Assembly: GCA_045118155.1 (NCBI GenBank)
Contig: JBGUXS010000078.1
Coordinates: 443 to 64,442 of the forward strand
Reading direction: 5' to 3'
Source: Alphaproteobacteria bacterium
Lineage (GTDB): Bacteria > Pseudomonadota > Alphaproteobacteria > CAAHEQ01 > UBA3637
DNA: 64,000 nt
Under the pieces are notes generated by a model that saw nothing but the letters and a program-made list of their open reading frames with translations, did no database searches and was not told the origin of the DNA. Made by a program: the position numbers and the translations under genes. This document shows positions 2,199 through 58,063 of the stretch, piece by piece; the first letter of the stretch is position 1, and every line of letters starts with the position of its first letter.

Positions 2199-3341
2199 AT
2201 GCAGAAAAAACGCACCTTTATTATTGGACTTATTTGGGGGCTAATCTTCTTTTGGTGGCTGCACAATTTTTTTTACTTGAATTGGTATTTTCGGTTTTAC
2301 AGTCCCAAAGCTTGGGTTTATTTACTTCATGAATTCAAGTACGGTTGGCGGGTACGGGCCGTTTCCGATTGGATCTTTATTTTTACCCTTATTTTCGCAT
2401 TACCTCTGTTTTTCTGGGGGTGGTATCTATGCTTAAAAATCAAATGGTTGGCTCTTTTTAAATGGATAAAAAAACAATTTTTAAAACTTACCAACAAAAA
2501 ATCAACTGTTGTAAAAAAACAAATGAAGTTAGCCGCTAAAAAAAGTGTGCAAAAAGAACGCCCCCCTGCCCTTGCAACCCCCAAAGTAACTAGTCCCGAA
2601 AAGAAAATGCAAAAAATGCCATCTTCTGCCATCAAAAAAGAAGAAATCGATTTAGATTTTTCTGCTAAAGAAGAATTTTTGAAAGAAGAAAACATTCAAA
2701 CGGCACCTCCTGCCAAAGAACATCGGGCCCCGGATCCACCAAAAGGGGGACCTTCTTTCCTATTTGAAGATGATGATATCCCGCAACAAAACAATGATGT
2801 TCGGGCCGACACACTGTTGTCTGAAATAAAAATGCCAGAACGAGAACGAACACAAGAAAATATCCCAGATATTATTCACGCGCATGGCTTTAAGCCCATC
2901 ACGGCCATTGTGCATCCAGATATTTCTTTTGCGGCCGTTTCTTCAGATACCCTTTTGGTTGCTTTTGTGGATGAAGAACCAGGAGATTGGCTAGCCGATG
3001 AAGAAGATTTTGAAGGGGAAGACCCCTTGTGGTTTTCAGAAAGTTTTCATCGGGTTTCCCCAGTTTTTAAACTATTAAAAGTTGCTAAAAAAATCAGGGC
3101 TCAGTTAGAAAATCAAGGACTTTCTCATAAAGTAATTCCTTACTTAATTGAAAAAATGGGAAATATTATTAACGTAGAAGATATGCAAGAAACGTGGAAA
3201 GAACTGGGGGTCATTGTCTGCCGAACAGATGTTGGGGGGGATGAAACATTACCCACAGTAGAAGCTTCTTTCCCGCAAGCAAAAGATGTTGCAGAAGCTG
3301 CTGATTTAGATATAATAAAAGAAATTTTAAAAAAGTTATAG
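2199..3341 (+). CDS. Hypothetical membrane protein: N-terminal TM segments, K/E/P-rich linker, acidic C-terminal globular domain
   Basis: 380-aa ORF ending 10 nt upstream of virD4. It has W/F-rich TM helices and a low-complexity linker. The C-terminal block (HGFKPITAIVHPDISFAAVSSDTLLVAFVDEEPGDW) loosely resembles a NERD/PD-(D/E)xK-type core, and I assign no family with confidence. Confidence 0.65.
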   Translation: MQKKRTFIIGLIWGLIFFWWLHNFFYLNWYFRFYSPKAWVYLLHEFKYGWRVRAVSDWIFIFTLIFALPLFFWGWYLCLKIKWLALFKWIKKQFLKLTNKKSTVVKKQMKLAAKKSVQKERPPALATPKVTSPEKKMQKMPSSAIKKEEIDLDFSAKEEFLKEENIQTAPPAKEHRAPDPPKGGPSFLFEDDDIPQQNNDVRADTLLSEIKMPERERTQENIPDIIHAHGFKPITAIVHPDISFAAVSSDTLLVAFVDEEPGDWLADEEDFEGEDPLWFSESFHRVSPVFKLLKVAKKIRAQLENQGLSHKVIPYLIEKMGNIINVEDMQETWKELGVIVCRTDVGGDETLPTVEASFPQAKDVAEAADLDIIKEILKKL

Positions 3342-3350
3342 GGGGAAAAG

Positions 3351-5522
3351 TTGGGCGCCTCTGACGCGATGTACACCGAACGTAAAAAATATACGTACTA
3401 TGTGGCAGCTATCGTAGTACTGGCTCTTTTTGTATCTTGGATAATGCTGTTAATTACAATTCCTTTACAAGCTTTTATCCGTCAAGGGTTAGATATTGAA
3501 GCTTGGAATTACAGTGTTTCCTTTTGGACACATGCTTGGCATCCAAAAGTCATTTTTCAAGTCCTCAATAGTTGGTTTGATTCCCTAAAAACGTTAAAAA
3601 ATCCCCATTGGACTTTATATTTACCCTTTTTATCCTTTTTTATTGGCTTTATCGTTTTAGTGATAGGGCTAAAAAAGAATCCCTTTGAATACACACCAAA
3701 TATTTTTGGGAATGGACGTTTAGCCACTTATGCTGATGTCAAAAAAATGAAATTATTTACTGGGTTCTGCATCGTTTTGGGACGTTTTAAAGGCAAGTTA
3801 TTAAAAATGCCAGAAACCTTAGCGGCCTTAGTTGTTGCGCCACCGGGGACTGGTAAAACCGCTGGGGTGGTGATTCCCACCATTTTTGAATCCCCAGGAT
3901 TGAGTATTATTGTAAACGACCCTAAACCAGAATTATGTTATACCACAACCGGATATCGGGCACAACAAGGGCCTGTGTTCGTTATTAACTGGGGGGCCGA
4001 TGATGAACCAGAAAAAGGGATTTTCTTCCCTAGTTGGAATCCACTTTCTGCTTCATGCTTACCAGCACCAGGTCCCGCCAGAGATATGTACATAGACTCT
4101 ATGGTGGCTATTTTGGTAGAAGTTAATGAAAAAGATCCTCACTGGGGGAAAACTGGGCGAAATGCTATGTCTGGTTTTTTGAACTTTATCGCCAGTAAAT
4201 GTGAACGGGCACTTGCTAACGATTACTTTACTTCACGTTTAATGGACGATTTATTTGATGATGAAGACGCGGCCGTTTTAGAAACATACTATGCGGATAT
4301 GAACGATCCTGATACAGGGTCTGCTTTACAGGCATTAAAAAATGGGTCTATGACACGGGAATCTTACGTCCCTATCGGTACATGGGCGGGGCTACCTTCT
4401 GTTTGGCAAGGAAAAGAACCTTGTATTGCTATGATTTTGGACTGGCTGACGGAAATGCAAATGAAAATCAATGCCGATATTAAACGCCGTATGGATGAAG
4501 GGGATCAAATGGCGGCCATGGCAGACCCCATGCGGGATCTATTGGAAAGTGCCATCAGTGAAGCAGCCCGCTATGGCTATGCCAGACGTTCTGTCACAGA
4601 ACTCAATCAATTATCCGCCACACCGGATAAGGAACGGGGGTCTATTTTATCCACGGCCCTTTCTGGGATCAGTATTTTTAAAAACTCGGCAGTGCGTTCT
4701 AGAACTAAGTTCAGTGACATTACTTTCCGTGATTTACGTGGGATGCGTGATCCTATTACAGGGGAACAAAAACCTATTTCGGTTTATCTATCCGTTAACC
4801 AGGTAGATGCCCAAGCCTTAAATGTCATTACTGGGATTTTTGTTGAATTGATGAGCAGTTTCTTAATCGCGAACCCCCCAAATTTTGTTGGGGCAGGCGG
4901 GAAAAAGGCGGGACCATTTCCTGTTTTATTTGTGCTTGACGAGTTTCCACAAATGCCAAAATTGGATGCTGTGAAAAACGGGCCTGCCGTAGGGCGGGGA
5001 CAGAAAGTTTCTTATTTGCTCATTGGGCAGGATCTTGGACAGATTTCTGGTAAATACGGGAAAGATGATTTGGAAACAATCATTACAACAACAGCCGCTA
5101 AAGTCATTCTTTCTCAAAACAACGAACAAACCGCTGAACGTTTTACAAAAATGATTGGGACTAAAACGATTCAAGTAACAAGTTCTAGCCGAACTGAAGG
5201 GATTTCCAACCAAAATAACCCCTTTGCGGCAAACGTAAGCCGTTCCTACCAAAGCTCAAACGTGGTCCAAGTATCTGATATGATGAGCTTAGATATGCTT
5301 AAACAATACGTTTTATTCCAAGGATATCTAAACCATCCTATCTTAGCGGATGCCCCTCGTTATTACTTAGATAAAGTCATGCAAAAGAAAGCGGCCATTC
5401 CCCCTTCCCCATTTGTTCCGTATTGGATTGTAGCGCAACGGGAAGATACCGATTTAGAAACATTAAAAGCTTTGATGCAAGAGGAATTAGCAGATTTGGA
5501 TATTATCATAGAGGATGAATAA
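3351..5522 (+). CDS. virD4: Type IV secretion system coupling protein VirD4/TraG
   Basis: N-terminal TM helices, Walker A VVAPPGTGKTAGVVIPT, Walker B-like FVLDEFPQMPKL and the TraG/VirD4 family pattern. A TTG start at 3351 follows AGGGGGA; an alternative ATG lies at 3369. Confidence 0.9.
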   Translation: MGASDAMYTERKKYTYYVAAIVVLALFVSWIMLLITIPLQAFIRQGLDIEAWNYSVSFWTHAWHPKVIFQVLNSWFDSLKTLKNPHWTLYLPFLSFFIGFIVLVIGLKKNPFEYTPNIFGNGRLATYADVKKMKLFTGFCIVLGRFKGKLLKMPETLAALVVAPPGTGKTAGVVIPTIFESPGLSIIVNDPKPELCYTTTGYRAQQGPVFVINWGADDEPEKGIFFPSWNPLSASCLPAPGPARDMYIDSMVAILVEVNEKDPHWGKTGRNAMSGFLNFIASKCERALANDYFTSRLMDDLFDDEDAAVLETYYADMNDPDTGSALQALKNGSMTRESYVPIGTWAGLPSVWQGKEPCIAMILDWLTEMQMKINADIKRRMDEGDQMAAMADPMRDLLESAISEAARYGYARRSVTELNQLSATPDKERGSILSTALSGISIFKNSAVRSRTKFSDITFRDLRGMRDPITGEQKPISVYLSVNQVDAQALNVITGIFVELMSSFLIANPPNFVGAGGKKAGPFPVLFVLDEFPQMPKLDAVKNGPAVGRGQKVSYLLIGQDLGQISGKYGKDDLETIITTTAAKVILSQNNEQTAERFTKMIGTKTIQVTSSSRTEGISNQNNPFAANVSRSYQSSNVVQVSDMMSLDMLKQYVLFQGYLNHPILADAPRYYLDKVMQKKAAIPPSPFVPYWIVAQREDTDLETLKALMQEELADLDIIIEDE

Positions 5523-6064
5523 TGACGGAAGATTTTAAGTTTGAAGATGGTCTAGGACAGGATTATTGGATTCGTGAATTTCATAAAATTCCCTTTCCAG
5601 GAATGGAATTGTTTGAAGTAACTTTTTTTAGACGTATAGAAGGGGCCTATGTGGATAAACATCAGCGCTTTAGAGAAATGGCCGTTGATTTTCTAAAAGA
5701 TTTAGGGAAAGAGGAAGAAGAACTTTATGCTTTTGAATTTTCTGAGGCCGAAGTCGCTTTGATTAAAAAAGGTCGTCTACCAGAAAATTATACTGTCCAT
5801 TTAAAATATCCTTTAGAATACGGTTGTGCATTGATCCCAGAACAATTTGTTTTGATGCCTATTGCCCCTTATTATCGGGATATTAATACTTATATCTTCA
5901 GACAACTTATAACCGATGAAGGAATTAAAAAGCCCCATCACCTTTATGTTCCCACACCAACAGGGCGTATTTATAAACCTTATTCTGGGGATGCAAGTGG
6001 CAGCGGTGGGAAAAGTAATACTTCCCAAATGGCGGCTATGTTTAACCAGGGGCGGGGGCGTTAA
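5522..6064 (+). CDS. Hypothetical 180-aa protein; candidate T4SS substrate or toxin with a degenerate HNH-like motif
   Basis: Its start overlaps the virD4 stop (TAATG) and follows a GAGGA RBS. The segment YTVHLKYPLEYGCALIPEQFVLMP parallels the colicin-DNase/HNH pattern H-H-x3-P-x4-GG-x5-N-x5-P with substitutions. The tail is Gly/Ser-rich and ends in basic GRGR. Confidence 0.6.
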   Translation: MTEDFKFEDGLGQDYWIREFHKIPFPGMELFEVTFFRRIEGAYVDKHQRFREMAVDFLKDLGKEEEELYAFEFSEAEVALIKKGRLPENYTVHLKYPLEYGCALIPEQFVLMPIAPYYRDINTYIFRQLITDEGIKKPHHLYVPTPTGRIYKPYSGDASGSGGKSNTSQMAAMFNQGRGR

Positions 6065-6065
6065 T

Positions 6066-6524
6066 ATGAAATTAATACATGTTGTTTTAAAAGCTATTTA
6101 TAAAGATGCCGCTGTTGTTTTTAATCCTGTGGCTTTGACTGATGTTCAAAAGGCCTCTTTTGAAATTGTAAAAAATAAAGGGATTAAAATTCCTAATGAT
6201 TATGCTGCCTTTTTAACAGAAGTTGATGGATTATCCTGGAATGGATTGTATCTTTTTTCCTTAAATGAAAAGGAACGTCAAGATGGCGCTTTTGTGCACC
6301 CTGGCATTCTACAAACATACCATAAGGGCTTAAAAAATCCGATTTTTAAAAACAGGCTTTTATTAGGATACGGCCCTGAAGAAATCATTACATATCATGC
6401 GGGAAAAAAAGAATATCAAATCCTAAGTCAATATGATTACAGAATCCTAGTACGGCTTCCCCGCTTCTTTGATGTACTGTATCACTATACCCATGCTTTA
6501 TTTGAGGATGCCCCTAAGGACTAG
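6066..6524 (+). CDS. SUKH / SMI1-KNR4-like protein (candidate immunity protein)
   Basis: The ATG at 6066 lies 2 nt after the orf180 stop and follows a G-rich SD. GIKIPNDYAAFLTEVDGLSWNGLYLFSL and LLLGYGPEEIITYHAGKKEYQIL fit the SMI1_KNR4 pattern (lP.dY..FL...nG, then fg.d....i.yd). The longer track ORF starting at 5916 overlaps orf180 and was not used. Confidence 0.6.
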   Translation: MKLIHVVLKAIYKDAAVVFNPVALTDVQKASFEIVKNKGIKIPNDYAAFLTEVDGLSWNGLYLFSLNEKERQDGAFVHPGILQTYHKGLKNPIFKNRLLLGYGPEEIITYHAGKKEYQILSQYDYRILVRLPRFFDVLYHYTHALFEDAPKD

Positions 6525-6895
6525 GACAAATCTTGCTTAACATGTGGCGTTTGCAAAAGTTCTTCAATGTGATCGGCCACTTCTAAGGAAGTATCTTTTT
6601 TAAAGATTAAATCTGGCACAATTCTTAACCGGATTTCTTTTCCAATGCGGTAACGAAAAAGGCCTTTATGTGCATTTAACAACTTCACTTGTTCATTCAC
6701 ATCAATTCCCCCGATACCATTTACAAAAACACTTGCGTAACTCAAATCTGGGGAAATGTTAGCTTGTGTGATTTGTAAAGCCCTTGGTTTTAAACCTGAA
6801 ATAAACAAATCCTCTTTAACCAACATCTGTCCAATTAGACGCCGAATGCTTTCTGAAACCCGAAGTTGCCGTTGTGATTGTTCTGACGTTTTCAT
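6521..6895 (-). CDS. rbfA: Ribosome-binding factor A
   Basis: SQRQLRVSESIRRLIGQML and ITQANISPDLSYASVFV are RbfA signatures. The Met at 6895 is preferred; the ORF is open to 6931. Confidence 0.9.
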   Translation of the reverse strand: MKTSEQSQRQLRVSESIRRLIGQMLVKEDLFISGLKPRALQITQANISPDLSYASVFVNGIGGIDVNEQVKLLNAHKGLFRYRIGKEIRLRIVPDLIFKKDTSLEVADHIEELLQTPHVKQDLS

Positions 6896-6939
6896 AGAAG
6901 CTATTATACCTTTTTTTCTTGTTCCTTTCAAGAATCTTT

Positions 6940-7680
6940 TTAGAACAAGTATCTAAGCCCCACCAAAACCGTCTGACTTTTATTTTCAACAGAAATCGGA
7001 GTTTTAGAAACTTTATCTGTCAATGAAATACGGCCTGGATCCATATAACGGTACCCTACATCTAAATCCAAATCCCGACCTAAATGTGTCGTGACACCGG
7101 CGGCTACATTCCAAGCCATTTTATACTTCCATGTTTCATGATTATAATGGTTCGTTCCTTTGTCTGATTGAACACGAATACGGGATTGGCTGACCCCGAT
7201 TCCTCCCCCAATATAAGGGCTAAAAGTATAAGAAGGGAACAAATCATAATAGGCATTCAAAAAATAAGTATTCATTTTAATATTGCTTGCCCGAACCCGT
7301 GTTCCATCATCCAACTTAAATACCGCATCCCTTTTCCCATGAGAATTATAGCTACCTTCAAGTTCCGTCCGCACATTTCCAAGCATTGTTTTGACTTGAA
7401 CCCCCAAAGCCCCGCTTAATTCCATCAGCTCATCCTTTTTTTTCTGAGATTGCCCCCCAATAGCGGGTTCAAAATCCCGTCCTTTATAGCCGATTTTTGC
7501 CTCAACATAAACCCGTTGACTAGGTTCCAAAGAATTATCTTTCAGACTCTCTTCCATATATTTGTTCTTATCATCCATCACGTAAAAATCAGTATCTCCC
7601 GCATAAGAGGCATAGTAGACACCAGCTTGTGCGTAATAACTTGACAAAACAAAAAAAGTAAAAATAAGCTTCTTCATCAT
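6940..7680 (-). CDS. Outer-membrane beta-barrel protein (OMP_b-brl / Omp25-like family)
   Basis: Signal peptide MMKKLIFTFFVLSSYYAQA, alternating amphipathic beta strands and a C-terminal LVGLRYLF with terminal Phe. Confidence 0.75.
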   Translation of the reverse strand: MMKKLIFTFFVLSSYYAQAGVYYASYAGDTDFYVMDDKNKYMEESLKDNSLEPSQRVYVEAKIGYKGRDFEPAIGGQSQKKKDELMELSGALGVQVKTMLGNVRTELEGSYNSHGKRDAVFKLDDGTRVRASNIKMNTYFLNAYYDLFPSYTFSPYIGGGIGVSQSRIRVQSDKGTNHYNHETWKYKMAWNVAAGVTTHLGRDLDLDVGYRYMDPGRISLTDKVSKTPISVENKSQTVLVGLRYLF

Positions 7681-7698
7681 TTCATCCTCCTAAACCAA

Positions 7699-9510
7699 TT
7701 AGTCCCGTGTTACTTCGGGAAGGGTAAAATTATTTTCATCAAAAACACAGTATGTTTCAACCCGGGCGCTTAACGTATTGTCCCCCAAAGTTCCCCCTGT
7801 AAAATTCGTGGAACCCGCCCCCGTAACATAGCCAACTTCTATCCCCCATACTCTGGCAATATCCGCTTCGGTTTCTGCCTTTGCTTTATGAACATTATTA
7901 ACAGCCACAGCCACCGTATAGCGCGACACATTTGCATTTGTGACATTTGTGGTAGATCCATTTGTTACACCTTCAAAACTGTTCAAAACGTCCTTTCCGG
8001 TTGTTCGGATCGGGGTAACCACCAAAGCGGCCTTATATCCGGCCGGGCATGCTGGCGTTGTCACATTTGCCCGCAAGCAATTGTTCGTATATCCACTACA
8101 GTTCCCTAAATTAGCTTCTGTCGTTAATTCGGTAATAGATTTTGAAACATAATTCGGCAAGATATCACTTAATCTCGCCCCACCACGAGAAGCCAACTTA
8201 ACATCATTCATCACAGACGTATAAGCTGGATCTACCTGATAATGATCATACGTTTCTGATTCATTAGCAGCTTGAGCATCCACAAATTCAACGGATGAAT
8301 CAATACCTTTTGCAGACACGACTGCATTTTCTACTAACTGACCATCTGCATCATAAGCATTCAGCGTAACTTTCCCCTTGGAAGATCCATCTGTGGCTTC
8401 TTCAGCTTCGGCCTTTAAGACATCACGTCCGGCACTATCTCTGGTAATAATCTGCCCATTAGCATTGACAATAACCCGACGTTTGCCCGTGGCATCATAA
8501 ACGGTCACTGCCCGCTTGTCATTATCCACAGGATCAGTGGAAATAACGGCCGTTGAAACAAAGGCTTGAATTGTTTCCCCATCGTTCACGGGATCATCCA
8601 TAGAAACCGCTTGACGTCCTACATGCAAATCATTGCGGACATAAACATTCCCCGGGGTTCCTGCCAATCCTTCATCCGTTCCGTTTTCAAGATGTTCTGC
8701 CCCTACCCAAAATAAGGGGGCACATTCTTCCCCTGCATCCAAAATTGTATAACCGGTTGCATCTTTTCTAAAGCAATTCGTATTTCCTTCGCCAATAGAA
8801 AAATAGCTCCAAGCATGCAAGTTTTTGAAAGCGGCTTCATCTTCTAAAGAAGAAAAGAGTGCCCCTTCATCAAATCCAGTAAATGCAACATAAGACGGGC
8901 TTACCACAGGTTCCATCATCAAAGATGCCCCTTCTAATTCCCAAGTTCCCATGGTGCCTACAAAATTATCCCCTTGGACGATACCCCCATCAGCCCCAAT
9001 CAAGGCAGCGATACTAGCCGCCCGCTTTAAATTCCATGTTCCTTGCGGCAGTGCCGATGCTTTAGGTAAGATAACTCCATAAAAAGAGGTCCCAACTTTT
9101 GCCCCTTCCGTATTTTCTAAATTTTTCCCAAAAAGGTAAAAATTGTATTTTTCAGCCGTACTTGATGTCAAAACATCCCCTGTGTACGTGTTATAGGTCA
9201 CTGGTAAGTATGTTGCCACATTTTTCCACAACGTGTTATATGAACAATTGGAAGTTTCTGTTCCAGACAATGCACAAACCCCACCACCGGCTGTGGCTAA
9301 TTCTTCAAGTTGCCTATGTTGCGTTTGGATAAAAGAGGAAAAAGCTTCCTTCATCGTACGCATTTCGGTCGCTACATTAACATTGGCTAGTTCCCGATTA
9401 CGTTGTGCCACTTGCCTATACAAAACAGGTCCCAACACCGCCAAGATCCCTAAGACGGCAATAGCTTCTATCATAATAGACCCAGATTGGGTTTTTACAG
9501 CTTTTTTCAT
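7699..9510 (-). CDS. Large (603 aa) protein with a prepilin/TadE-like class III signal N-terminus
   Basis: The N-terminus MKKAVKTQSG|SIMIEAIAVLGILAVLGPVLY has Gly at -1, Glu at +5 and a hydrophobic helix. The remainder is T/N/G/A/V-rich with Cys pairs near the C-terminus. A consensus promoter lies upstream. Confidence 0.7.
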   Translation of the reverse strand: MKKAVKTQSGSIMIEAIAVLGILAVLGPVLYRQVAQRNRELANVNVATEMRTMKEAFSSFIQTQHRQLEELATAGGGVCALSGTETSNCSYNTLWKNVATYLPVTYNTYTGDVLTSSTAEKYNFYLFGKNLENTEGAKVGTSFYGVILPKASALPQGTWNLKRAASIAALIGADGGIVQGDNFVGTMGTWELEGASLMMEPVVSPSYVAFTGFDEGALFSSLEDEAAFKNLHAWSYFSIGEGNTNCFRKDATGYTILDAGEECAPLFWVGAEHLENGTDEGLAGTPGNVYVRNDLHVGRQAVSMDDPVNDGETIQAFVSTAVISTDPVDNDKRAVTVYDATGKRRVIVNANGQIITRDSAGRDVLKAEAEEATDGSSKGKVTLNAYDADGQLVENAVVSAKGIDSSVEFVDAQAANESETYDHYQVDPAYTSVMNDVKLASRGGARLSDILPNYVSKSITELTTEANLGNCSGYTNNCLRANVTTPACPAGYKAALVVTPIRTTGKDVLNSFEGVTNGSTTNVTNANVSRYTVAVAVNNVHKAKAETEADIARVWGIEVGYVTGAGSTNFTGGTLGDNTLSARVETYCVFDENNFTLPEVTRD

Positions 9511-9536
9511 GTGGCATTACCCCCTAATTTTTTCCT

Positions 9537-9565
9537 ATTATACACCTTTTTTTATTAAAAGTCAA
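9537..9565 (-). promoter_or_regulatory. Consensus sigma70 promoter (TTGACT-17-TATAAT) for the pilin-like gene
   Basis: The minus strand reads CTTGACTTTTAATAAAAAAAGGTGTATAAT, 26 nt upstream of the ATG at 9510. Confidence 0.7.
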
Positions 9566-9662: not shown

Positions 9663-10118
9663 ATGTCATATATTACACGAACGCTTGGGGAAGACGAAAA
9701 AGTTCAAGTTGTCGCTAAATTACATTGGATTTGCTATGTTTATCCGACCCTACTTCTTTGCTTATGTTTATTCTGTGGTTTACTGGGATTAGGGGCTAAT
9801 CCTGTTTTCTTACTAATCAGCTTTCTGATTGGGCTTTTGGCTTTTTACCATTTTTTAAATTTAAACGCCATAGAAATGGTTGTCACCAACAGACGGGTTG
9901 TCTGTCGCAAGGGTATTATTGGGATTAAAACTTGGGAACTAAAAAACAATAAGGTAGAATCCATAGAAGTCAAGCAATCTCTAAAAGGGCGTATTCTAGG
10001 TTATGCAACCTTATGGTTTTCTGGCACAGGCACTTCCAAGGTGTGCTTTCAAAACATTAAAAATCCTTGGTCCCTAAAGAAAAAAATAGATTTGATCATT
10101 GGGAAAGACGAAGATTGA
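9663..10118 (+). CDS. Bacterial PH-domain (bPH_2 / YdbT-like, DUF304) membrane protein
   Basis: YITRTLGEDEKV, two TM helices, then VVTNRRVVCRKGIIGIKTWEL and IEVKQSLKGRILGYATL. Confidence 0.75.
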   Translation: MSYITRTLGEDEKVQVVAKLHWICYVYPTLLLCLCLFCGLLGLGANPVFLLISFLIGLLAFYHFLNLNAIEMVVTNRRVVCRKGIIGIKTWELKNNKVESIEVKQSLKGRILGYATLWFSGTGTSKVCFQNIKNPWSLKKKIDLIIGKDED

Positions 10119-14668: not shown

Positions 14669-15059
14669 GGGCCACCAATGAACGTACCCGTTCTACCATA
14701 GAAAAAAAACCATTCCGACGCGTGGGGGATAAATGATCTTCTAGACCTAAATCCTTAAAAATCCGTTCTATATCCAATTCCCGAATAAAAGCAGCTGTTT
14801 GCCCATTAATTAGGGAAAGTAAAATAGCCTCTAACCCCCGTACAATAAAGGCATCGCTATCGGCAACAAAAAAGAACTTATCCCCTTTTTGCTGAACAGT
14901 AATCCACACTTGTGATTGGCATCCTTGGACCTTATGGGCTTCTGTTTTATCTTCTTCTGGCATCGGGGGTAAACTCTGTCCTAATTCAATTAGGTATTGG
15001 TATTTTTCTTCCCAATCCGTAAATAAAGAAAAATTATCAATTAATTCCTGTTCTGTCAT
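14661..15059 (-). CDS. sufE: SufE-like cysteine desulfuration protein
   Basis: WEEKYQYLIELG and VQGCQSQVWI, the conserved Cys motif of SufE/CsdE. Confidence 0.85.
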   Translation of the reverse strand: MTEQELIDNFSLFTDWEEKYQYLIELGQSLPPMPEEDKTEAHKVQGCQSQVWITVQQKGDKFFFVADSDAFIVRGLEAILLSLINGQTAAFIRELDIERIFKDLGLEDHLSPTRRNGFFSMVERVRSLVAHA

Positions 15060-16462
15060 TCAATGTTTTTTAATCCTTCTAGTGTTAATTTTACCTTTAT
15101 TATATCAACACTGCGATTTTTTTCATCAAAAATACGCTTATCCTCTTGTAAAAAAGGACGTAAGTCTTTTAATAATCCAGCATCTTCAGTAGCTTGACAC
15201 GCTGAATTTTGTAAAAATTCTTTTTCTTGAGGGGTTGTTTGAACCGCCACATTTTGTAAATAGGTTTGCATCAAAGTACATTGTTCTTCATCAATCGGTT
15301 TGGCTGGGGGAGAAATAGCATCAAAATTCCGAATAAGAAATTCAATATCTCCAACGGGTTTTTCCTTTTCAATCTGTCCTGTAAAATGCACATCTATAAC
15401 CGCTTGTACACTTTCCAAACTTCCTTTAACATCCAAATCAGCCCCTTTTAGCAGCCCCCAAGAAAAATCTTTAGAAAGCAATTGTTCTACTAATATTTCA
15501 CGATCAAACTTTTTGGCTTTGATAACTAATTTTCCCTTTTCTGGGATAAACCCTTTGGTCGGGACATTCCCTATACACGCGAATGTTAGGTTAATTTCAG
15601 CTTCCTCCCCCTTAAATTCTACTTGCCCTTCTACCTGCGTTAAAATAATCTTTCTGGGGTAAACGGGAAATACTAAATCCGCCTGTGGTATTTCAAATTC
15701 AATTTTTCCTGTATCCGCCAATAACCATGCATTATGTAAAATAGGGGCTAATCCCTGAAACCGTGCTTTTTCCGTTAAAGAAGCCACCGTCCCTTGCACT
15801 TCTTTCCCCGTAAATGTCAACCCCAAAAGGGAGGCTTTTTGTTCAATAACGGGAACATGCCCCAAAAAAGAAAACATATATTTGCCGTTTGCTTCATCCA
15901 CTTTCAATTGCCATTCGGGGCGCGTCAGGTGTACATGGCTAGCACTCCACCGATCTTCGGCAATCAAATCCCAATACGGGTGCCATTTAAATTCATTTTG
16001 CCACTTTTCAACATAGAAAAAATTGGGTTCAAATACCGCGGTTGCAAAACCTTCTAGTTGTTCTTTTGGGGGAAAGTGTCCCCGATATAACGTCGTCCCT
16101 TCTAATTGCCCATCTGGGGTCAATAATACCCCTTGTGTAGGGAAAGTCATTTCATCCGGTGTTTCTTTAAGTGGCATCCAAACGGTCAGAACTTTTTTCT
16201 TCAAGTCTAAATCATTCTTCACAGATGCTTCTGGCAATATTAAACTTGCTTGATCGGCTCGTTGTTGCAAAACAGCCCCCGAAATCCCCAATGCCTTTAA
16301 CTTCGCCCTTAGGGCCTTAGCCAAAGTATCATGATCCGGTCGTGTCAACACAGTGGATGGGGTTACGTAAGACATAGCATTAGGGAAAAAACGCGTTAAC
16401 ACCGCGCCTTGCAAAGCAACTGCCCCTACAAGAGCCAGACGTCCCAATAATTTTGCTAACAT
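15056..16462 (-). CDS. Hypothetical exported/periplasmic protein (468 aa)
   Basis: N-terminal signal/anchor MLAKLLGRLALVGAVALQGAV. No recognisable catalytic motif. ATGA overlap with sufE. Confidence 0.6.
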   Translation of the reverse strand: MLAKLLGRLALVGAVALQGAVLTRFFPNAMSYVTPSTVLTRPDHDTLAKALRAKLKALGISGAVLQQRADQASLILPEASVKNDLDLKKKVLTVWMPLKETPDEMTFPTQGVLLTPDGQLEGTTLYRGHFPPKEQLEGFATAVFEPNFFYVEKWQNEFKWHPYWDLIAEDRWSASHVHLTRPEWQLKVDEANGKYMFSFLGHVPVIEQKASLLGLTFTGKEVQGTVASLTEKARFQGLAPILHNAWLLADTGKIEFEIPQADLVFPVYPRKIILTQVEGQVEFKGEEAEINLTFACIGNVPTKGFIPEKGKLVIKAKKFDREILVEQLLSKDFSWGLLKGADLDVKGSLESVQAVIDVHFTGQIEKEKPVGDIEFLIRNFDAISPPAKPIDEEQCTLMQTYLQNVAVQTTPQEKEFLQNSACQATEDAGLLKDLRPFLQEDKRIFDEKNRSVDIIKVKLTLEGLKNIE

Positions 16463-17303: not shown

Positions 17304-17393
17304 TGGCGGATGGAGTGAGATTCGAACTCACGTTGGGCGTAAACCCAAACACACTTTCCAGGCGTGCGCCTTCAACCACTCGGCCATCCATCC
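17304..17393 (-). tRNA. tRNA-Ser (anticodon GGA), CCA encoded
   Basis: The minus strand reads GGATGGATGGCCGAGTGGTTGAAGGCGCACGCCTGGAAAGTGTG...long variable arm...GAGTTCGAATCTCACTCCATCCGCCA. It has a 7-bp acceptor stem, a T-loop GTTCGAATC and anticodon loop CTGGAAA. Confidence 0.93.
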
Positions 17394-27459: not shown

Positions 27460-27758
27460 TGCCACCATTTTTAAGCCCTGATGAAGATTCGTGTCTTTTA
27501 CACATTTTATTGGTTCCTAATGCTAAAGAAAATAAGATTTATGGTCTTTTTAATGAACGATTAAAACTTTATATTTCTGCCCCAGCTGTGGACGGAAAAG
27601 CGAATAAAGCTTTAATTAAATACCTGGCTGATCTCTTTAACCTAAAAAAAAATCAGATTTCCTTGATACAAGGGGAAAGATCCCATCAAAAAACAGTACG
27701 ACTAGATGCCCCTATTGACCACATCTGTACTTGTTTAAGTCAACATATTTCCGTGTAA
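27456..27758 (+). CDS. DUF167 (YggU-like) protein
   Basis: LLVPNAKENKIYG and LKLYISAPAVDGKANKALIKYLADLF. Confidence 0.8.
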   Translation: MMPPFLSPDEDSCLLHILLVPNAKENKIYGLFNERLKLYISAPAVDGKANKALIKYLADLFNLKKNQISLIQGERSHQKTVRLDAPIDHICTCLSQHISV

Positions 27759-28805
27759 AATACGTGTAATCTCGCTTCCTTGCATCAAAGAAAAACCTAA
27801 GGCTTGGGCTTGTTGTATTTCTTGAGGGGTTTGAATATCAAACAAGATAATTTTTTCTTTAGGATAATTCAAAGTAGCAGCCCATTTCATCTGTTGACTA
27901 TTAATCTTTAGGTAATGCATCGGGATTTTATCCCATGCTAAATAGGATATTTCCTCCGGAATGCGTAATAAAAAGAGGGATTGTTGATAACAAGGTATTT
28001 TTTGAATACTTTGCCATAAATCCCGTTCCCAAAGAAAATCTGATAAACTTATTTCATAAGAAATACCTTGATGTTGATACAATTGGTGCATTTCCTGATA
28101 AACGGGTTGGGTTAAAAGATAAGGACTCGCAGAAAAAACTCCTCCTTGTGTTTTGGGCAATTCCTTTTTTAAAATTTTTGTATACAGCGCATTCTTAAAG
28201 GCCCTTTTCAAATATGTATCAGAATCCAATATCACCTTTGGAAATAGAACTTGACGGACATCAATATCTTTACAAAAAACACTGGTAAATACAGGAACCA
28301 TCTCGGTTAAATCATGAACCTGACAAATGCATTGATGCCGTGTTAAATGTGAAACATCCGCTGTTTTTAGCTCTGATAAAATATGTGTGAGAGTTGGGGT
28401 ATCCAAGGGCAATGAAGGAATTTTTTGAAGCACTTTTAAATCAGAAAAATCTGCTGTTGGGGTTAGCTCTTGATGATTAATTTTATGGATCAAAGCATTA
28501 AAATCTGTGATTAAATTAAAAAATGATAATTTATGTTCTTGGAAAAAGGATTTTTCCAGCCCCTTTAATTTCAAGGAAAGCAACATCATATCCTGTAATT
28601 TATTATGGGCAAAAAAGGCAACGCTATCCCCTTCGCTTAAAAAGAACAATTTCGTTTGATATGTCTGTTCAAAAGAACTCAAAAAATGCAAAAGAACCTT
28701 TTTTTTCTCATCTTCTTTAGGTAAAGGAATATAAAGAGCATGCCCTTTAAATGTTCTTTTTTCAAGATATTTGAGATAGTCAAAAACACTATTATACCGC
28801 ATCAT
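27735..28805 (-). CDS. Degenerate GGDEF-like + EAL-like two-domain protein (paralog 1)
   Basis: KLFFLSEGDSVAFFAHN sits where RxGGDEFavll would be. The C-terminal half follows the EAL topology (LLRIPEEISYLAWDKIPMHYLKINSQ, then IILFDIQTPQEIQQAQALGFSLMQG) but lacks the catalytic EAL and DDFG residues. Confidence 0.6.
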   Translation of the reverse strand: MMRYNSVFDYLKYLEKRTFKGHALYIPLPKEDEKKKVLLHFLSSFEQTYQTKLFFLSEGDSVAFFAHNKLQDMMLLSLKLKGLEKSFFQEHKLSFFNLITDFNALIHKINHQELTPTADFSDLKVLQKIPSLPLDTPTLTHILSELKTADVSHLTRHQCICQVHDLTEMVPVFTSVFCKDIDVRQVLFPKVILDSDTYLKRAFKNALYTKILKKELPKTQGGVFSASPYLLTQPVYQEMHQLYQHQGISYEISLSDFLWERDLWQSIQKIPCYQQSLFLLRIPEEISYLAWDKIPMHYLKINSQQMKWAATLNYPKEKIILFDIQTPQEIQQAQALGFSLMQGSEITRILHGNMLT

Positions 28806-29874
28806 ATCCCCTTAAATGTTGCACACACACGCATTGTGATGCTTGATGCGGGATCGCCCCCATTTGCATACACGTTTGTAAAGCACAATCTCCCCCATAT
28901 GGACACGTTTTTTTTCGAGAAGCCGCATGAATCAAATCAATAAAATCACCTTGAAAAAAGGTATATGGGGAAGACAGAATTTGAGTTAATTTTTCTTGCG
29001 TATCCACTCCTGTTACAAAAACAGGAACATGATTGATTGATTGTGTTAAACAAACTTCTACGGGAAGAAGTAAAAAATCAGCTTCTAATAAATCAAAACG
29101 ATAAAAGGCCGTTTCTGCAGTAATGCCCCCAATACCTAACCGATACTGTTTTCCTGGACGAGTTAGGGCTTCCTTATACAGATTTTTATTTAACAAGACT
29201 TCTGCAATATCTAAAATAATCCAAACTGGGTCATTATTTTCAATCCAAGCACTTTCCAACGTTCCTTGCACCATCAAAGGCAATGTCGTTTGTTTAAACA
29301 GCTCTTTATTTGGGTGTTGCAATAATTGTTTCTGTATTTTCTGAACTAACCACATTGGAAGCTGATCCATATTGTTTTTTAAGGTCCATGTATATCCCCA
29401 CAGAGAGTTGCTCCCCTTTTGATAAATTACCCGCCTAAACCAACTATTTTTTTCGGGAATATCTTTTAAAAAAGCCTCATAATCAACCTCTTGATTCGTT
29501 TGCTTTTTAGCTATCTGAATCAGGGACAAAACCCCCATCAAATCCTGTGGTAAATGGAACAAGCGTACATTTTCTTCTTTTTTTCCTGTTTGAATTTGAA
29601 AAAATGTTTGAATTTGGCGCATCACATCCACAACTTGATGTTCATCAAGATCAACCCCTATTAATAAACGATCTTGTTGTTCAAATGTAAAAAGCCGACA
29701 ATATTCATACGCTAATAACGGTTCTAATAAATGTTCTATGACGTGCATCAACCTTTCGGCCCCTGGCAGACCTAATAATTGACTTGTCCCTATCCAAAGG
29801 ACAACCGACGGTGTTTCTAAAGCAGCGACACGCTTTATTGTTTCTAAGGCCAGTTGTTCTTGTGTCTCATACAT
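28792..29874 (-). CDS. Degenerate GGDEF-like + EAL-like two-domain protein (paralog 2)
   Basis: CRLFTFEQQDRLLIGV sits in the GGDEF position. VIYQKGSNSLWGYTWTL corresponds to YQPi...g.EaL, followed by RLGIGGITAETAFYRFDLLEADFLLLP and VFVTGVDTQEKLTQILSSPYTFFQG. It overlaps paralog 1 by 14 nt. Confidence 0.6.
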   Translation of the reverse strand: MYETQEQLALETIKRVAALETPSVVLWIGTSQLLGLPGAERLMHVIEHLLEPLLAYEYCRLFTFEQQDRLLIGVDLDEHQVVDVMRQIQTFFQIQTGKKEENVRLFHLPQDLMGVLSLIQIAKKQTNQEVDYEAFLKDIPEKNSWFRRVIYQKGSNSLWGYTWTLKNNMDQLPMWLVQKIQKQLLQHPNKELFKQTTLPLMVQGTLESAWIENNDPVWIILDIAEVLLNKNLYKEALTRPGKQYRLGIGGITAETAFYRFDLLEADFLLLPVEVCLTQSINHVPVFVTGVDTQEKLTQILSSPYTFFQGDFIDLIHAASRKKTCPYGGDCALQTCMQMGAIPHQASQCVCVQHLRGYDAV

Positions 29875-53441: not shown

Positions 53442-53517
53442 GTTTTTTTCATAAAAGCATTTTCTGCCTTTACTTTTCATCTCTTTTTGATTATGCTTGT
53501 TTCTACAAGGGGGTAAT

Positions 53518-53805
53518 ATGCGGGAACCTATTTTAAAAGCGGTCAGTATGCCGGCGCGTATTTTATGGGCGCCGTCGGTTCCGGCGTTGTTAAACATGGT
53601 TTGTCAATTACCTTTCATGTTGTTCTATGCGGGACAAGGGGGCAACCCTTTGCTATTCATGGGAACTATCATCGGGGTTCATGCCTTAATTGCTCTTTAT
53701 GCCGCGAAAGAACCTCATTTATCTAATATGTTCAAAGCCCAAGGTCCTTTCTTTAAGAAAAGTTCACAAATGTATACCTCATCAGGAAGAAAATACGCCC
53801 CATGA
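53518..53805 (+). CDS. virB3: Type IV secretion system protein VirB3
   Basis: ~96 aa. ILKAVSMPARILWAPSVPALLNM (L.ka.tRP...GvP pattern) and two TM helices. ATGA overlap with virB4. The track ORF starts earlier, at 53497. Confidence 0.8.
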   Translation: MREPILKAVSMPARILWAPSVPALLNMVCQLPFMLFYAGQGGNPLLFMGTIIGVHALIALYAAKEPHLSNMFKAQGPFFKKSSQMYTSSGRKYAP

Positions 53806-56237
53806 ATCAAACAGATGTTTTCGCCCTTATTTTACAAAATGCTTCCTCTACGGGGTTACTTATTGCCTTGTTAGGAGTATTAGCACTTGTTTTTGTCATG
53901 GTTGTATTTGTGACCTCCTTAGGAAATATGTTACTTCCCAAACCAAAAGAAACCCTTGTTTCTGATTTTCTTCCTTTTTCAAGGCTAGACCCAGATGGTG
54001 CCACCATTTACATGCGTAATGGTACTTTGGCTCGTGTTTTTGAATTAACAGGAACGGATACCACTTTAGCAAGTGATATTGAACGTAAAGCCTTAATGGA
54101 AAAACGGCAACAATGGATTGATTCACTAAGTGAATTAGAAATTATTTGCAGGGTTATTACGATTCGTGAAAAAATTCCTTTAGCCGAAGAAACACTACAT
54201 CCAGATAATCCTTTGCTCAATAAAGTGTCAGAACTTTGGTTGAACAGTTTACACCGTATTTTCAGAAACAAACATTACCTAATTCTTTCCGTTAATGATC
54301 GTAAGGATGCCATTAATGATTTAATTCAGGCAACAAATGCGACTCTTTCTATTTTAGATGTTTATCATCCTATTCTTATTTCTGAAAAAACCCCAGATAA
54401 ACATCAAGACAAAAGCCCCTTTTGGGTTTTTTCACAACTTGTCAGCCCCGTATCAAACCCCAAACCCATTGTAGGCTTTGAAAAAGGGGAAGAACTTAAT
54501 TCCTTTTTAACGTCTGACTATATCCACTTCACAAAAGATGAAGGGATTATCCGTTTCTTTTCTGGGGATAGGGAAAAATTAGCCATTTGTATCGGTATTC
54601 GTAAGCCTGGGGATTTCATGGATGAACAAATGGTTGCCCGTATTTTAGGAATTGATTGTGAAGTTGTTATTACACACAATATCCATGCTATTCCAAAAGC
54701 AAAAGGAAACCTGTTAATGATTCAACAACGCCGTATGGCTTACTTAACAAGTTTTTCTGAAAGTGTACGTTCCCAATATAATACCGCCATGCAATTAATG
54801 GATCCTTCTGATATTAATTCACAAACCCTTAATGAATATTCTATGTCTATTATGGTTTATGGGGAATCTAAGGAAGAACTTGTTTTTGGACAACAGGAAG
54901 TTGAAAAAATATGCCGACTTTACGGGGTGACCCCTGTGCGAGAAGGTTGGATTACTCAAGCTGTTTTCTTTTCTCAAATTCCCTCTTATGAAGTATATCC
55001 ACGTACATACTTGTATTTATCGCGGGTAGTGGCGTGTTCCATTTGCATGGATAAAACAACTGAAGGCCGGCAAAAATCTGATTGGGGGCCTGTGCCTATT
55101 TCTTACTTCCGGACTATTACGGGGACCCCTTACGCTTTCCAATTTCATGTAACAGAAGAACCCTATGCTGTGGCACATACAGCCCTTATTGGTCCAACGG
55201 GACAAGGGAAAACAACCTTATTTTCATTTTTAGCAGGCCAATCTTCCCGTATTCCAGATTTACGGACTTATTTCTTTGACCGTAACAATGGGGCCAAAGT
55301 TTTTGCTTTATTACAAGGGGCTCCTTATGTGCGGTTTGATGGGGGGGACAATGCTGTTGCCTTAAATCCTTTCTTTATGCCAGATTCCCCTGAAAACAGG
55401 GCATTTTTACGATCTTGGTTACGCTCTATTACTGGCTGTACAGATGCTTTTTCCGAAGAAGAAATTGCCCGAGCCGTTACAACAGCTTATGACTATTTAA
55501 AACCAGAAGAACGTCTTTTGAAGAACTTGTATAAAAGCTCTTTTTCCTTAAACGGAGATATGCGCCGTGAACTAAAACGTTGGGTCAGTGATGATCAATA
55601 TGGTCGGATCTTTAATGCCGAAGAAGATAAATTAGATATTGATAACCGCTATACTGGTTTTGATTTTACGCATATTTTCCAAGATGGGACGTTGGCTCCT
55701 GCTGTCATCAGTTATATCATGTACCGCATTCATGAATTAGCTAGTTTAAAAGGGACCCCCTCGTTAGTGATGATTGATGAAACGGCCCCTATGTTAGAAC
55801 ATCCTATGTTCCGAGACAATTTCATTGTAGGCCTTCGGGAAGGACGAAAGAAACGACAAGCATTCTTATGTGCTTTCCAGCAACCTCGCTTTTTAGATGA
55901 AAACGGTTTAGGGGATGTGATTCGTGGCCAATGTCAAACCATTATTTTCTTTAGAAATTTACAGGCAACCCCCGCGGATTATGAATCTTGGAATTTAACC
56001 CCAAGTGAACTAAACTTTATTCTAGGAAAAGAATTTATTGATCATAAATACGCCATCCTTGTCAAACGGCCCGCTGTTAATGAATCTGTTATCTTAGATA
56101 TTAATTTGGGGGGATTAGGTCCCTACTTAAAAATTTATTCTTCTGGGAATAAAAATGTGGCCTTAGTTGAACGTCTTAGTCATGAACTAAAATATGCTAA
56201 AGATATCCTACAACAATATCTACAGTTATCTGATTAG
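53802..56237 (+). CDS. virB4: Type IV secretion system ATPase VirB4
   Basis: 811 aa of CagE/TrbE/VirB4 architecture. Walker A LIGPTGQGKTT and Walker B-like SLVMIDETAPML. Confidence 0.92.
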   Translation: MNQTDVFALILQNASSTGLLIALLGVLALVFVMVVFVTSLGNMLLPKPKETLVSDFLPFSRLDPDGATIYMRNGTLARVFELTGTDTTLASDIERKALMEKRQQWIDSLSELEIICRVITIREKIPLAEETLHPDNPLLNKVSELWLNSLHRIFRNKHYLILSVNDRKDAINDLIQATNATLSILDVYHPILISEKTPDKHQDKSPFWVFSQLVSPVSNPKPIVGFEKGEELNSFLTSDYIHFTKDEGIIRFFSGDREKLAICIGIRKPGDFMDEQMVARILGIDCEVVITHNIHAIPKAKGNLLMIQQRRMAYLTSFSESVRSQYNTAMQLMDPSDINSQTLNEYSMSIMVYGESKEELVFGQQEVEKICRLYGVTPVREGWITQAVFFSQIPSYEVYPRTYLYLSRVVACSICMDKTTEGRQKSDWGPVPISYFRTITGTPYAFQFHVTEEPYAVAHTALIGPTGQGKTTLFSFLAGQSSRIPDLRTYFFDRNNGAKVFALLQGAPYVRFDGGDNAVALNPFFMPDSPENRAFLRSWLRSITGCTDAFSEEEIARAVTTAYDYLKPEERLLKNLYKSSFSLNGDMRRELKRWVSDDQYGRIFNAEEDKLDIDNRYTGFDFTHIFQDGTLAPAVISYIMYRIHELASLKGTPSLVMIDETAPMLEHPMFRDNFIVGLREGRKKRQAFLCAFQQPRFLDENGLGDVIRGQCQTIIFFRNLQATPADYESWNLTPSELNFILGKEFIDHKYAILVKRPAVNESVILDINLGGLGPYLKIYSSGNKNVALVERLSHELKYAKDILQQYLQLSD

Positions 56238-57226: not shown

Positions 57227-57322
57227 GAAAAAAAGTAAAAAAGCGTTTTTTTTAAATTTTAATCACATTTTATGCTTGCTTTTCCCACAAAAAAAAGGTT
57301 GAATGATGCGCAGAGGAGAATT

Positions 57323-58063
57323 ATGAAAAAAATACTGTTGTGTCTTGGTCTTATACTATCTCTTCCCCTGGGGGCAGAGGAGTTGTTTTGGACATTTGAT
57401 AACACGGGAAAAGAATCCCCTGTTCCCCCTGATTGTGATGGGGTTTTTAACGAGGAATTAGGACGTTTTGTTTTGCCAACCCCAGAAGAATTATATACGG
57501 CGGGGAATGCCTATTTCTTTAAAAGGGAAGATGAACAACGTAACGCAGGGTATTGTTTTGTGGCGGCTGCCTTACAGGGGCATTTGAACGCTCAGTACAC
57601 ACTCGCTCAGCTTTACAGCAAGGGGATGGTTTTGCCTAAGGATGATTTAGCCGCCTATAAATGGGCTTTTATTGCGGGGTTGCAAGGACATAAAGCCGCT
57701 GAACGACTAGCGGTTTCTTTGGAACAATATCTAACAACTGAAGACATCATGAAGGCCACAGATGAAGCTCAGGAATTTTTAAAAACGTTGCCGACGAAAA
57801 CACAACAAACATTGGCGGGATTAGATGCTGAATTAGAAAGTAAGCAGGCCTATCTTGATCAAATTTATGCTGATATTGATAACGAATTGAACATTACTTT
57901 ACCCGAAGTTAAAATAGATGATTCTTTAAATCCTATTTTCCCGGATGAAGAAGAAACAGTGATTTCCAAAAAAGTCCCTACCGAAAAAAAAGCTGCAAAA
58001 ACAAAACGGGAATCTGTTTTAAAGCCTCTTGATAACATCTTTACTCAAAAAGATCGGCCATGA
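57323..58063 (+). CDS. Exported Sel1-repeat (TPR-like) protein
   Basis: Signal peptide MKKILLCLGLILSLPLGA. Sel1 units AQYTLAQLYSKGMVLPKDDLAAYKWAFIAGLQGH. The track ORF starts at 57272. Confidence 0.75.
   Translation: MKKILLCLGLILSLPLGAEELFWTFDNTGKESPVPPDCDGVFNEELGRFVLPTPEELYTAGNAYFFKREDEQRNAGYCFVAAALQGHLNAQYTLAQLYSKGMVLPKDDLAAYKWAFIAGLQGHKAAERLAVSLEQYLTTEDIMKATDEAQEFLKTLPTKTQQTLAGLDAELESKQAYLDQIYADIDNELNITLPEVKIDDSLNPIFPDEEETVISKKVPTEKKAAKTKRESVLKPLDNIFTQKDRP

Follow-up and report, generated by a model that had tools for sequence, protein, structure and literature searches.

The pilin-like gene, its promoter and the adjoining outer-membrane protein gene

We analysed a 64,000-nucleotide stretch of DNA from an uncultured alphaproteobacterium (GenBank assembly GCA_045118155.1, contig JBGUXS010000078.1, positions 443 to 64,442; referred to here as the window), the minus strand of which carries a gene for a 603-aa pilin-like protein followed by a gene for a 246-aa outer-membrane protein (OMP). 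The N-terminus of the 603-aa protein is MKKAVKTQSG/SIMIEAIAVLGILAVLGPVLY (reading MKKAVKTQSG/SIMIE..., with the slash at the predicted cut). It is composed of a 10-residue basic leader that ends in Gly10, Glu15 at position +5 and about 20 hydrophobic residues, and the leader aligns in register with the leaders of Geobacter PilA, BfpA-like pilins, PilS and PilV. This is the class III (prepilin-type) signal that a preliminary description of the locus had recognised. That description had also noted the departure from Phe-Thr-Leu at +1 to +3, which is normal for type IVb pilins; in these, Met, Leu, Trp or Ser can occupy the first position, and Ser at +1 is within this known range (PMC9045228). An alpha1 helix (residues 6–63) and a pilin globular domain extending to about residue 210 are predicted, and the C-terminal domains are beta-rich with four invariant cysteines. 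The protein is rich in Ala, Val, Thr, Gly and Asn and has eight Cys (79, 89, 246, 263, 471, 478, 488 and 588), four of which (246, 263, 488 and 588) are invariant in the family described below.

The promoter-like site TTGACT-17-TATAAT ends 26 nt ahead of the pilin ATG and matches 11 of the 12 consensus positions. It had been called a perfect consensus promoter and the best in the window; both statements were too strong, as our scan of the whole window returned four 11/12 sites, the pilin site being level with the three others. Only the pilin site and a similar site at rbfA are properly placed before a gene start. In the orthologous locus L007 (82% identical protein; related loci are numbered with the prefix L), both hexamers, their spacing and the ribosome-binding site are identical to those of the window. 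The synonymous divergence (dS) of the pilin gene between the two is 1.25 and silent sites are thus largely randomised; the site, unchanged nonetheless, is more than a product of chance. The L005 orthologue (45% identical) lies in another genomic place and is preceded, within a 66-nt spacer, by a perfect TTGACA-17-TATAAT. The rbfA site, TTGAAA-17-TATAAT, ends 7 nt before the likely ATG at 6895, so that rbfA would either be read through from the OMP gene or have a nearly leaderless mRNA. This ATG is probably the true start, rbfA being 124–127 aa long in the L007 and L093 gene calls.

The OMP gene starts 18 nt after the pilin stop codon (not 19 nt, as first given) and is probably co-transcribed with the pilin gene. 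Its product, described earlier as an Omp25-like barrel, indeed matches Pfam PF13505 (OMP_b-brl) with 42.7 bits (cut-off 28.7; E 8.9e-11) and, more weakly, Opacity, Surface_Ag_2 and NCBIfam Rick_Adr. The sequence carries a Sec signal (MMKKLIFTFFVLSSYYAQA) and, at the C-terminus, a beta-signal (...LVGLRYLF). Small beta-barrel OMPs of the PF13505 type are not known to have a role in type IV pilus biology. The OMP gene adjoins the pilin gene also in L005/L006, L007 and L093–L096, that is, in two genomic contexts. The ratio of nonsynonymous to synonymous divergence (dN/dS) is 0.09 for the pilin gene and 0.047 for the OMP gene, and these low values indicate that both genes are functional. The pilin gene evolves fast, like those of surface proteins: its dN of 0.113, against 0.014–0.020 for rpsI and pnp, is about five to eight times that of these housekeeping genes.

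Table 1. Position of the features in the window (no locus prefix) and in related loci (prefix L).
Feature	Position	Strand	Basis or remark
Putative PilV-like giant type IVb (minor) prepilin, 603 aa	7699..9510	minus	
Class III signal leader MKKAVKTQSG, coding part	9481..9510	minus	predicted prepilin-peptidase site after Gly10
Sigma-70-type promoter TTGACT-17-TATAAT, then AGGGGG ribosome-binding site	9537..9565	minus	sequence scan
OMP_b-brl / Omp25-Opa-Adr-like beta-barrel, 246 aa	6940..7680	minus	Pfam PF13505
rbfA, downstream neighbour outside the module	6521..6931	minus	Pfam RBFA 5e-22
bPH_2 membrane protein, divergent, between promoter and rpsI	9663..10118	plus	Pfam PF03703 3.7e-10; conserved in L007
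VirD4-type T4SS coupling protein, convergent with the module	3351..5522	plus	Pfam T4SS-DNA_transf 1.2e-54
VirB3-like (102 aa) and VirB4 (811 aa)	53497..56237	plus	Pfam CagE_TrbE_VirB, open reading frames
Partner gene, examples	L001 8480-9985; L003 9110-9985; L047 9182-9967		
Second pilin-like family, examples	L003 13432-14313; L047 1082-1483; L025 17227-20274		smallest 133 aa, major-pilin size
Type IVb pilus operon, 1-3 kb from a family gene	L047 13042-21091; L054 1007-7902	minus	two gut alphaproteobacterial MAG loci

Homologue family, predicted fold and homology to PilV

A search of 5.8 billion proteins identified 124 homologues of 445–1050 aa, in which no Pfam domain was found except for one weak Bactofilin match. 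Nearly all those with a name are “hypothetical protein [Alphaproteobacteria bacterium]” from gut or rumen metagenome-assembled genomes (MAGs). When 1.84 billion cluster representatives were searched with a profile, 720 matched at E ≤ 1e-3, including 353 at E ≤ 1e-30. Relatives are encoded at 272 places in the GTDB species genomes, and the matches listed there come, with few exceptions, from uncultured Alphaproteobacteria or from proteobacteria without a classification, Proteobacteria bacterium CAG:495 among them. The best of these matches is only 36% identical, indicating that the lineage of the window is not among the species representatives. A look-up of the window protein itself in the contig index returned no identical entry. 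We aligned the window protein with 48 other members. The N-terminal motif, with Gly at -1, Glu at +5 and the hydrophobic helix, is present in all 49 aligned sequences and in all of the approximately 120 homologues listed. Residues invariant across the alignment are G10 (-1), E15 (+5), A18, Q33, R37, E40 and A47, together with four cysteines and blocks around RAARIANLIGADGG...G..G.W, C.PLFWVG, VDPAYTSVMNDIRL.SRGGARLSDILPNY, CP.GY..A..V.P and the C-terminal TYCV.

Structure prediction, which the preliminary description had proposed, gave a pilin fold, in which a long alpha1 helix packs on an antiparallel beta-sheet. AlphaFold2 run on the family alignment placed the helix at residues 6–63, followed by the antiparallel sheet with a predicted local distance difference test score (pLDDT) of about 90 and then by beta-rich domains of lower confidence; a model of residues 1–215 alone reached a pLDDT of 84 and a predicted template-modelling score of 0.78. 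The fold matches include C. difficile PilA1 (4.6) and the minor pilin TcpB (4.4), with lower matches to EpsI, FimA, PilX, GspI and an archaellin. Compared with the sequences in the PDB, the profile of the 49-sequence alignment is in register with full-length Geobacter PilA, with marginal significance (E 0.054).

A regular expression for the T2SSE Walker A motif located two pilus ATPases among the related loci, in L047 and L054. Each belongs to a type IVb pilus operon close to the family gene (Table 1), composed of genes for a secretin, PAP_PilO, a 300-aa protein, the T2SSE ATPase, a T2SSF platform protein and a 465-aa pilin-like protein with an EGF module. The L047 ATPase is closest to those of plasmid type 4b operons, the best being a Bosea plasmid operon that ends in a gene named pilV by NCBI, and the Bosea PilV matches Pfam Shufflon_N above the cut-off (3.6e-11). 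In hhalign comparisons, our family aligned with the Bosea PilV over window residues 9–196 (97.4%, E 1.4e-11, 165 columns), with an alignment of four PilV proteins (97.4%, E 1.5e-11, 170 columns) and with the enterobacterial IncK PilV (73%, E 3e-5, 175 columns). The controls (a BfpA-like pilin, PilS and another pilin-like protein) reached 16–28% with E 6e-4 to 2e-3, and their alignments were confined to the first 27–49 residues. The alignment with the Bosea PilV takes in the A.L.GA.GG...G..G.W block, and the homology to the N-terminal constant region of PilV extends beyond the generic pilin helix. Individual family members from the fetched loci also matched the Bosea PilV by BLASTP, down to E 6e-12. 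The L051 protein aligned with it over its full length, pairing RLGDLLPRYVLQ with RLSDILPNYVLK and TYCYY with TYCVY; RL.D[IL]LP.YV and the C-terminal TYC.Y are common to both.

Genomic context of the window gene and its relatives

Directly upstream of the PilV-like gene, 73 of 87 loci carry a partner gene, whose product of 204–616 aa has conserved Cys and an N-terminal transmembrane helix that lacks a leader (M[VLY][FI]W...PR.D...AE...QH.AA). The partner belongs to no Pfam family, and some partners have a Laminin_G_3 domain. The gene upstream of the Bosea pilV reached 53% in hhalign against the first 48 residues of the partner, a similarity that may suggest that the two are related. In many loci we also identified a second pilin-like family, with the N-terminus G/RSM[VI]EMLGVLAIIGVLS, of 133–1015 aa and often Cys-rich; based on this family, the host bacteria use class III signals widely.

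The approximately 1000-aa forms of the PilV-like protein (L053, L056, L064, L069–L071 and others) are flanked by a conserved five-gene block plus uvrB; some of the five genes appear FliL- or FliM-like, judged from their N-termini alone. An OMP_b-brl homologue adjoins the long form in L064/L068 and L053 and lies about 7 kb off in others.

In the window, the minus strand carries truB, rpsO, pnp, rplM and rpsI, followed by the plus-strand bPH_2 gene and then by the pilin gene, the OMP gene and rbfA. The pair is thus located between rpsI and rbfA as first described, whereas the bPH_2 gene, which also sits between rpsI and the promoter, had been overlooked. An unannotated 380-aa open reading frame (ORF), virD4 and two small ORFs on the plus strand converge on rbfA, and the order of virD4 and the module is repeated in L007 and L093–L095; there may be a functional tie between virD4 and the pilin module. 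The small ORFs at 5522-6064 and 5916-6524 overlap, the second probably starting later (152 aa in L007), and the last one near virD4 has a weak YrhA/SUKH-like (immunity-protein-like) match. Genes of the type IV secretion system (T4SS) are scattered in the window, at 2199-6524 (+) and 53497-56237 (+). The virB3-like and virB4 genes in the second region adjoin gatCAB and have no pilin–OMP pair beside them. Elsewhere in the window, 468-, 356-, 360- and 263-aa ORFs at 15056-16462 (-), 27735-29874 (-) and 57272-58063 (+) have no Pfam match at E ≤ 0.1, save a weak Sel1 match for the last.

The preliminary description had regarded the pair as an insertion into a conserved ribosome and RNA-processing neighbourhood, a view that we found weakly supported. 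No integrase and no convincing flanking repeats were found at the pair, its GC content (0.39–0.42) is inside the range of the window, and the sole tRNA gene (tRNA-Ser, 17304-17393) lies about 8 kb away. Short direct repeats do flank the pair; they overlap two AT-rich promoter regions and were judged likely to be due to chance rather than insertion scars. In the distant relative L062 (7856-16753), a partner gene and a gene for a 1035-aa homologue are located just upstream of a canonical rbfA-truB-rpsO-pnp cluster. The adjacency of the pilin gene and rbfA therefore recurs and is not unique to the window; it may be old, with the rearrangement having occurred elsewhere. A rearrangement of the truB-pnp-rplM-rpsI segment is as likely an explanation for the separation of rbfA from truB as an insertion.

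The window arrangement is also present in four further metagenome assemblies. In L005 and L006, the pair (a 579-aa gene and a 246-aa OMP gene) directly follows a 95-aa gene and virB4 on the same strand, with the 66-nt spacer in between; the VirB4 proteins of the window and of L005/L006 are 81% identical. The lineage has clearly seen at least one move of the pair between the virB4 and rbfA loci, which may have gone in either direction. The four independent assemblies L093–L096, with a 99%-identical gene, all break 78–407 nt upstream of it, near the spacer between the promoter and bPH_2, which may reflect strain variation or an assembly-breaking feature.

Interpretation and comparison with known pilins

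Based on the signal, the predicted fold and the homology described above, the 603-aa protein is probably a type IVb prepilin and a remote homologue of PilV, of the kind of large minor pilin-adhesin found in conjugation-associated thin pili. The initial pilin reading was correct in kind; the class is that of PilV-like type IVb minor pilins and not TadE/TadG. The function of PilV as a thin-pilus adhesin is documented (PMC9045228; PMC5297154), and the initial suggestion of a surface adhesin or fibre subunit fits a remote homologue of this minor pilin. By analogy with PilV, TcpB and CofB, the prepilin would insert in the inner membrane and an A24 prepilin peptidase would cut after Gly10, leaving a mature subunit with Ser at +1. 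At low copy, this subunit would join a type IVb filament, probably at its tip, and genes elsewhere in the genome would encode the PilN/O/P/Q/R-type machine that builds this filament. The 400 C-terminal residues of the subunit would then protrude and attach to a surface structure of another cell. Such contact may serve the chromosomal T4SS by stabilising the mating pair or target cell, as the thin pilus serves IncI conjugation, a role suggested by the presence of virB3-virB4 or virD4 beside the gene in this lineage. The OMP, probably co-transcribed with the pilin, would belong to the same regulon as a further surface protein.

Several observations weigh against this assignment. By BLASTP, the window protein itself matched the Bosea PilV weakly (E 0.019–0.05), so the assignment is transitive through the family and the window protein is a more divergent member of it. 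Using hmmscan, we found no match to Shufflon_N (PF04917) at E ≤ 1 in the window protein, the 48 other aligned members or seven long-form members, and the window protein has no match to the NCBIfam PilV model. The gene is not the last one of a type IVb pil operon on a plasmid or integrative and conjugative element, the position typical of PilV; it stands alone on the chromosome under its own promoter. A shufflon, that is, alternative 3′ segments with sfx repeats and the Rci recombinase, occurs in I-complex plasmids only. Here, there is no shufflon: the 3′ end of the gene and the sequence following it have no significant inverted repeats, and the scanned ORFs of the window include no recombinase. 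The upstream partner gene was missing from the window in a search with a profile hidden Markov model, and it is missing from L005–L007 as well. Our Pfam scan of the window covered nearly all ORFs of at least 120 aa and returned no T2SSE, T2SSF, secretin or A24 peptidase, in line with the original remark that no pilus assembly genes are nearby; an A24 motif scan of the window was also negative. Across 1.5 Mb of related loci, neither a regular expression for A24 peptidases (GxGDxK) nor tblastn with three plasmid A24 peptidases found anything. Finally, a minor pilin of low abundance would not usually have a promoter so close to the consensus or share an operon with an OMP gene. A remote homologue of PilV that the current family models do not cover is the most fitting description of the 603-aa protein.

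Some of the same observations would suit a domesticated envelope protein that has become independent of the pilus. Its N-terminal helix would hold it in the inner membrane, or it would be periplasmic, and it would form an abundant envelope-spanning or surface complex with the OMP. The pilus machinery is missing from the 64 kb, the near-universal upstream partner has been lost, the strong conserved promoter suggests high expression, and the pilin and OMP genes relocate together. However, Gly at -1 and the membrane-embedded Glu at +5 are invariant under purifying selection, which is hard to explain without processing and filament assembly, and the machinery could sit elsewhere in the genome, as in most related loci; we consider such a protein unlikely. 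The T4SS genes raise another alternative, in which the protein is an accessory adhesin of a chromosomal VirB/VirD4 T4SS that replaces VirB5 and is displayed by or alongside the T4SS instead of a type IV pilus. Consistent with this, the L005/L006 pair follows virB3-virB4 after only 66 nt on the same strand, and some 1.4 kb separate the pair from virD4 in the window, L007 and L093–L095. Yet the pair has its own promoter even after virB4 and is convergent with virD4, and among the loci examined, T4SS genes are nearby only in L005–L007 and L093–L095 and in 0 of the other approximately 80. VirB5-type proteins use Sec rather than class III signals, and the protein described here is homologous to type IV pilins. 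We consider this alternative quite improbable.

The TadE/TadG type named in the preliminary description, or a GspK-like pseudopilin of a type II secretion system, would share the generic class III signal and the large size, and in one Joint Genome Institute record a homologue is called “type II secretory pathway...”. Pfam and NCBIfam scans of the 603-aa protein returned only DUF6383 and ComGG, both below the cut-off; the weak ComGG match of NCBIfam (residues 8–69, E 0.0026) could be read in the same direction. We obtained no match to Pfam TadE (PF07811), Tad_C, T2SSK or N_methyl, and the 64-kb window contains no tad genes. The homology beyond the first 50 residues is specific to PilV when compared with the controls, and the L047/L054 machinery is of the type IVb PilO/PilQ/PilR kind, leaving the pseudopilin assignment the most improbable of these alternatives.

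A PilV-like minor pilin would provide the first functional handle on a large family labelled only “hypothetical”, of which there are 720 representatives at the 50% identity level and relatives at 272 places among species-representative genomes, and would make it a PilV-type adhesin family of gut and rumen Alphaproteobacteria without cultured members. In the gut, PilV adhesins decide which cells are contacted by a donor (PMC9045228); given this role in the choice of contacts, chromosomal, fast-evolving versions could set partner or host specificity. The window variant would represent a minor pilin rewired away from its operon, with its own strong promoter, a linked OMP gene and T4SS genes nearby. 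A bolder and rather doubtful proposal is that the family is the main cell-attachment device of uncultured gut Alphaproteobacteria, a PilV-derived chromosomal giant tip pilin that has been uncoupled from conjugation and captures cells, and that in the window lineage it forms a highly expressed pilin–OMP module travelling with VirB/VirD4. If true, the result would be a T4SS contact system guided by a pilus, serving interaction between bacteria and not plasmid transfer. Some orders related to the uncultured gut Alphaproteobacteria have been proposed to depend on partner cells (PMC12306168).

Among known proteins, TcpB of Vibrio cholerae and CofB of enterotoxigenic Escherichia coli are large, tip-located type IVb minor pilins that have no detectable sequence homology to the window protein; they sit inside pilus operons and have been shown to act as trimeric assembly initiators. 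The OMP shares with Omp25/Omp31, Opa and rickettsial Adr the OMP_b-brl match above the cut-off, the Sec signal and the C-terminal aromatic residue, and its 45.7 bits against NCBIfam Rick_Adr are far under the 210-bit cut-off of that model. The closest comparison is with the PilV proteins of IncI, IncK and IncI2 plasmids (R64, TP114), PilV2 of PAPI-1 and the PilV of alphaproteobacterial plasmids (PF04917). Unlike these, the family falls under the Pfam and NCBIfam thresholds and has neither a shufflon nor an rci recombinase. The window gene is chromosomal and stands alone rather than after pilS-pilT-pilU, with its own strong promoter and an OMP gene next to it, and the Cys pattern and the middle beta-rich region of its product differ. 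On the other hand, the class III signal with Gly at -1 and Glu at +5 is common to both, the N-terminal 190 or so residues are homologous, including A.L.GA.GG...G..G.W, and the sizes are comparable (450–540 aa for PilV and 603 aa here). Both PilV and the window protein are associated with conjugation or T4SS genes, and the C-terminal motifs RL.D.LP.YV and TYC.Y are further features common to the family and the alphaproteobacterial PilV proteins.

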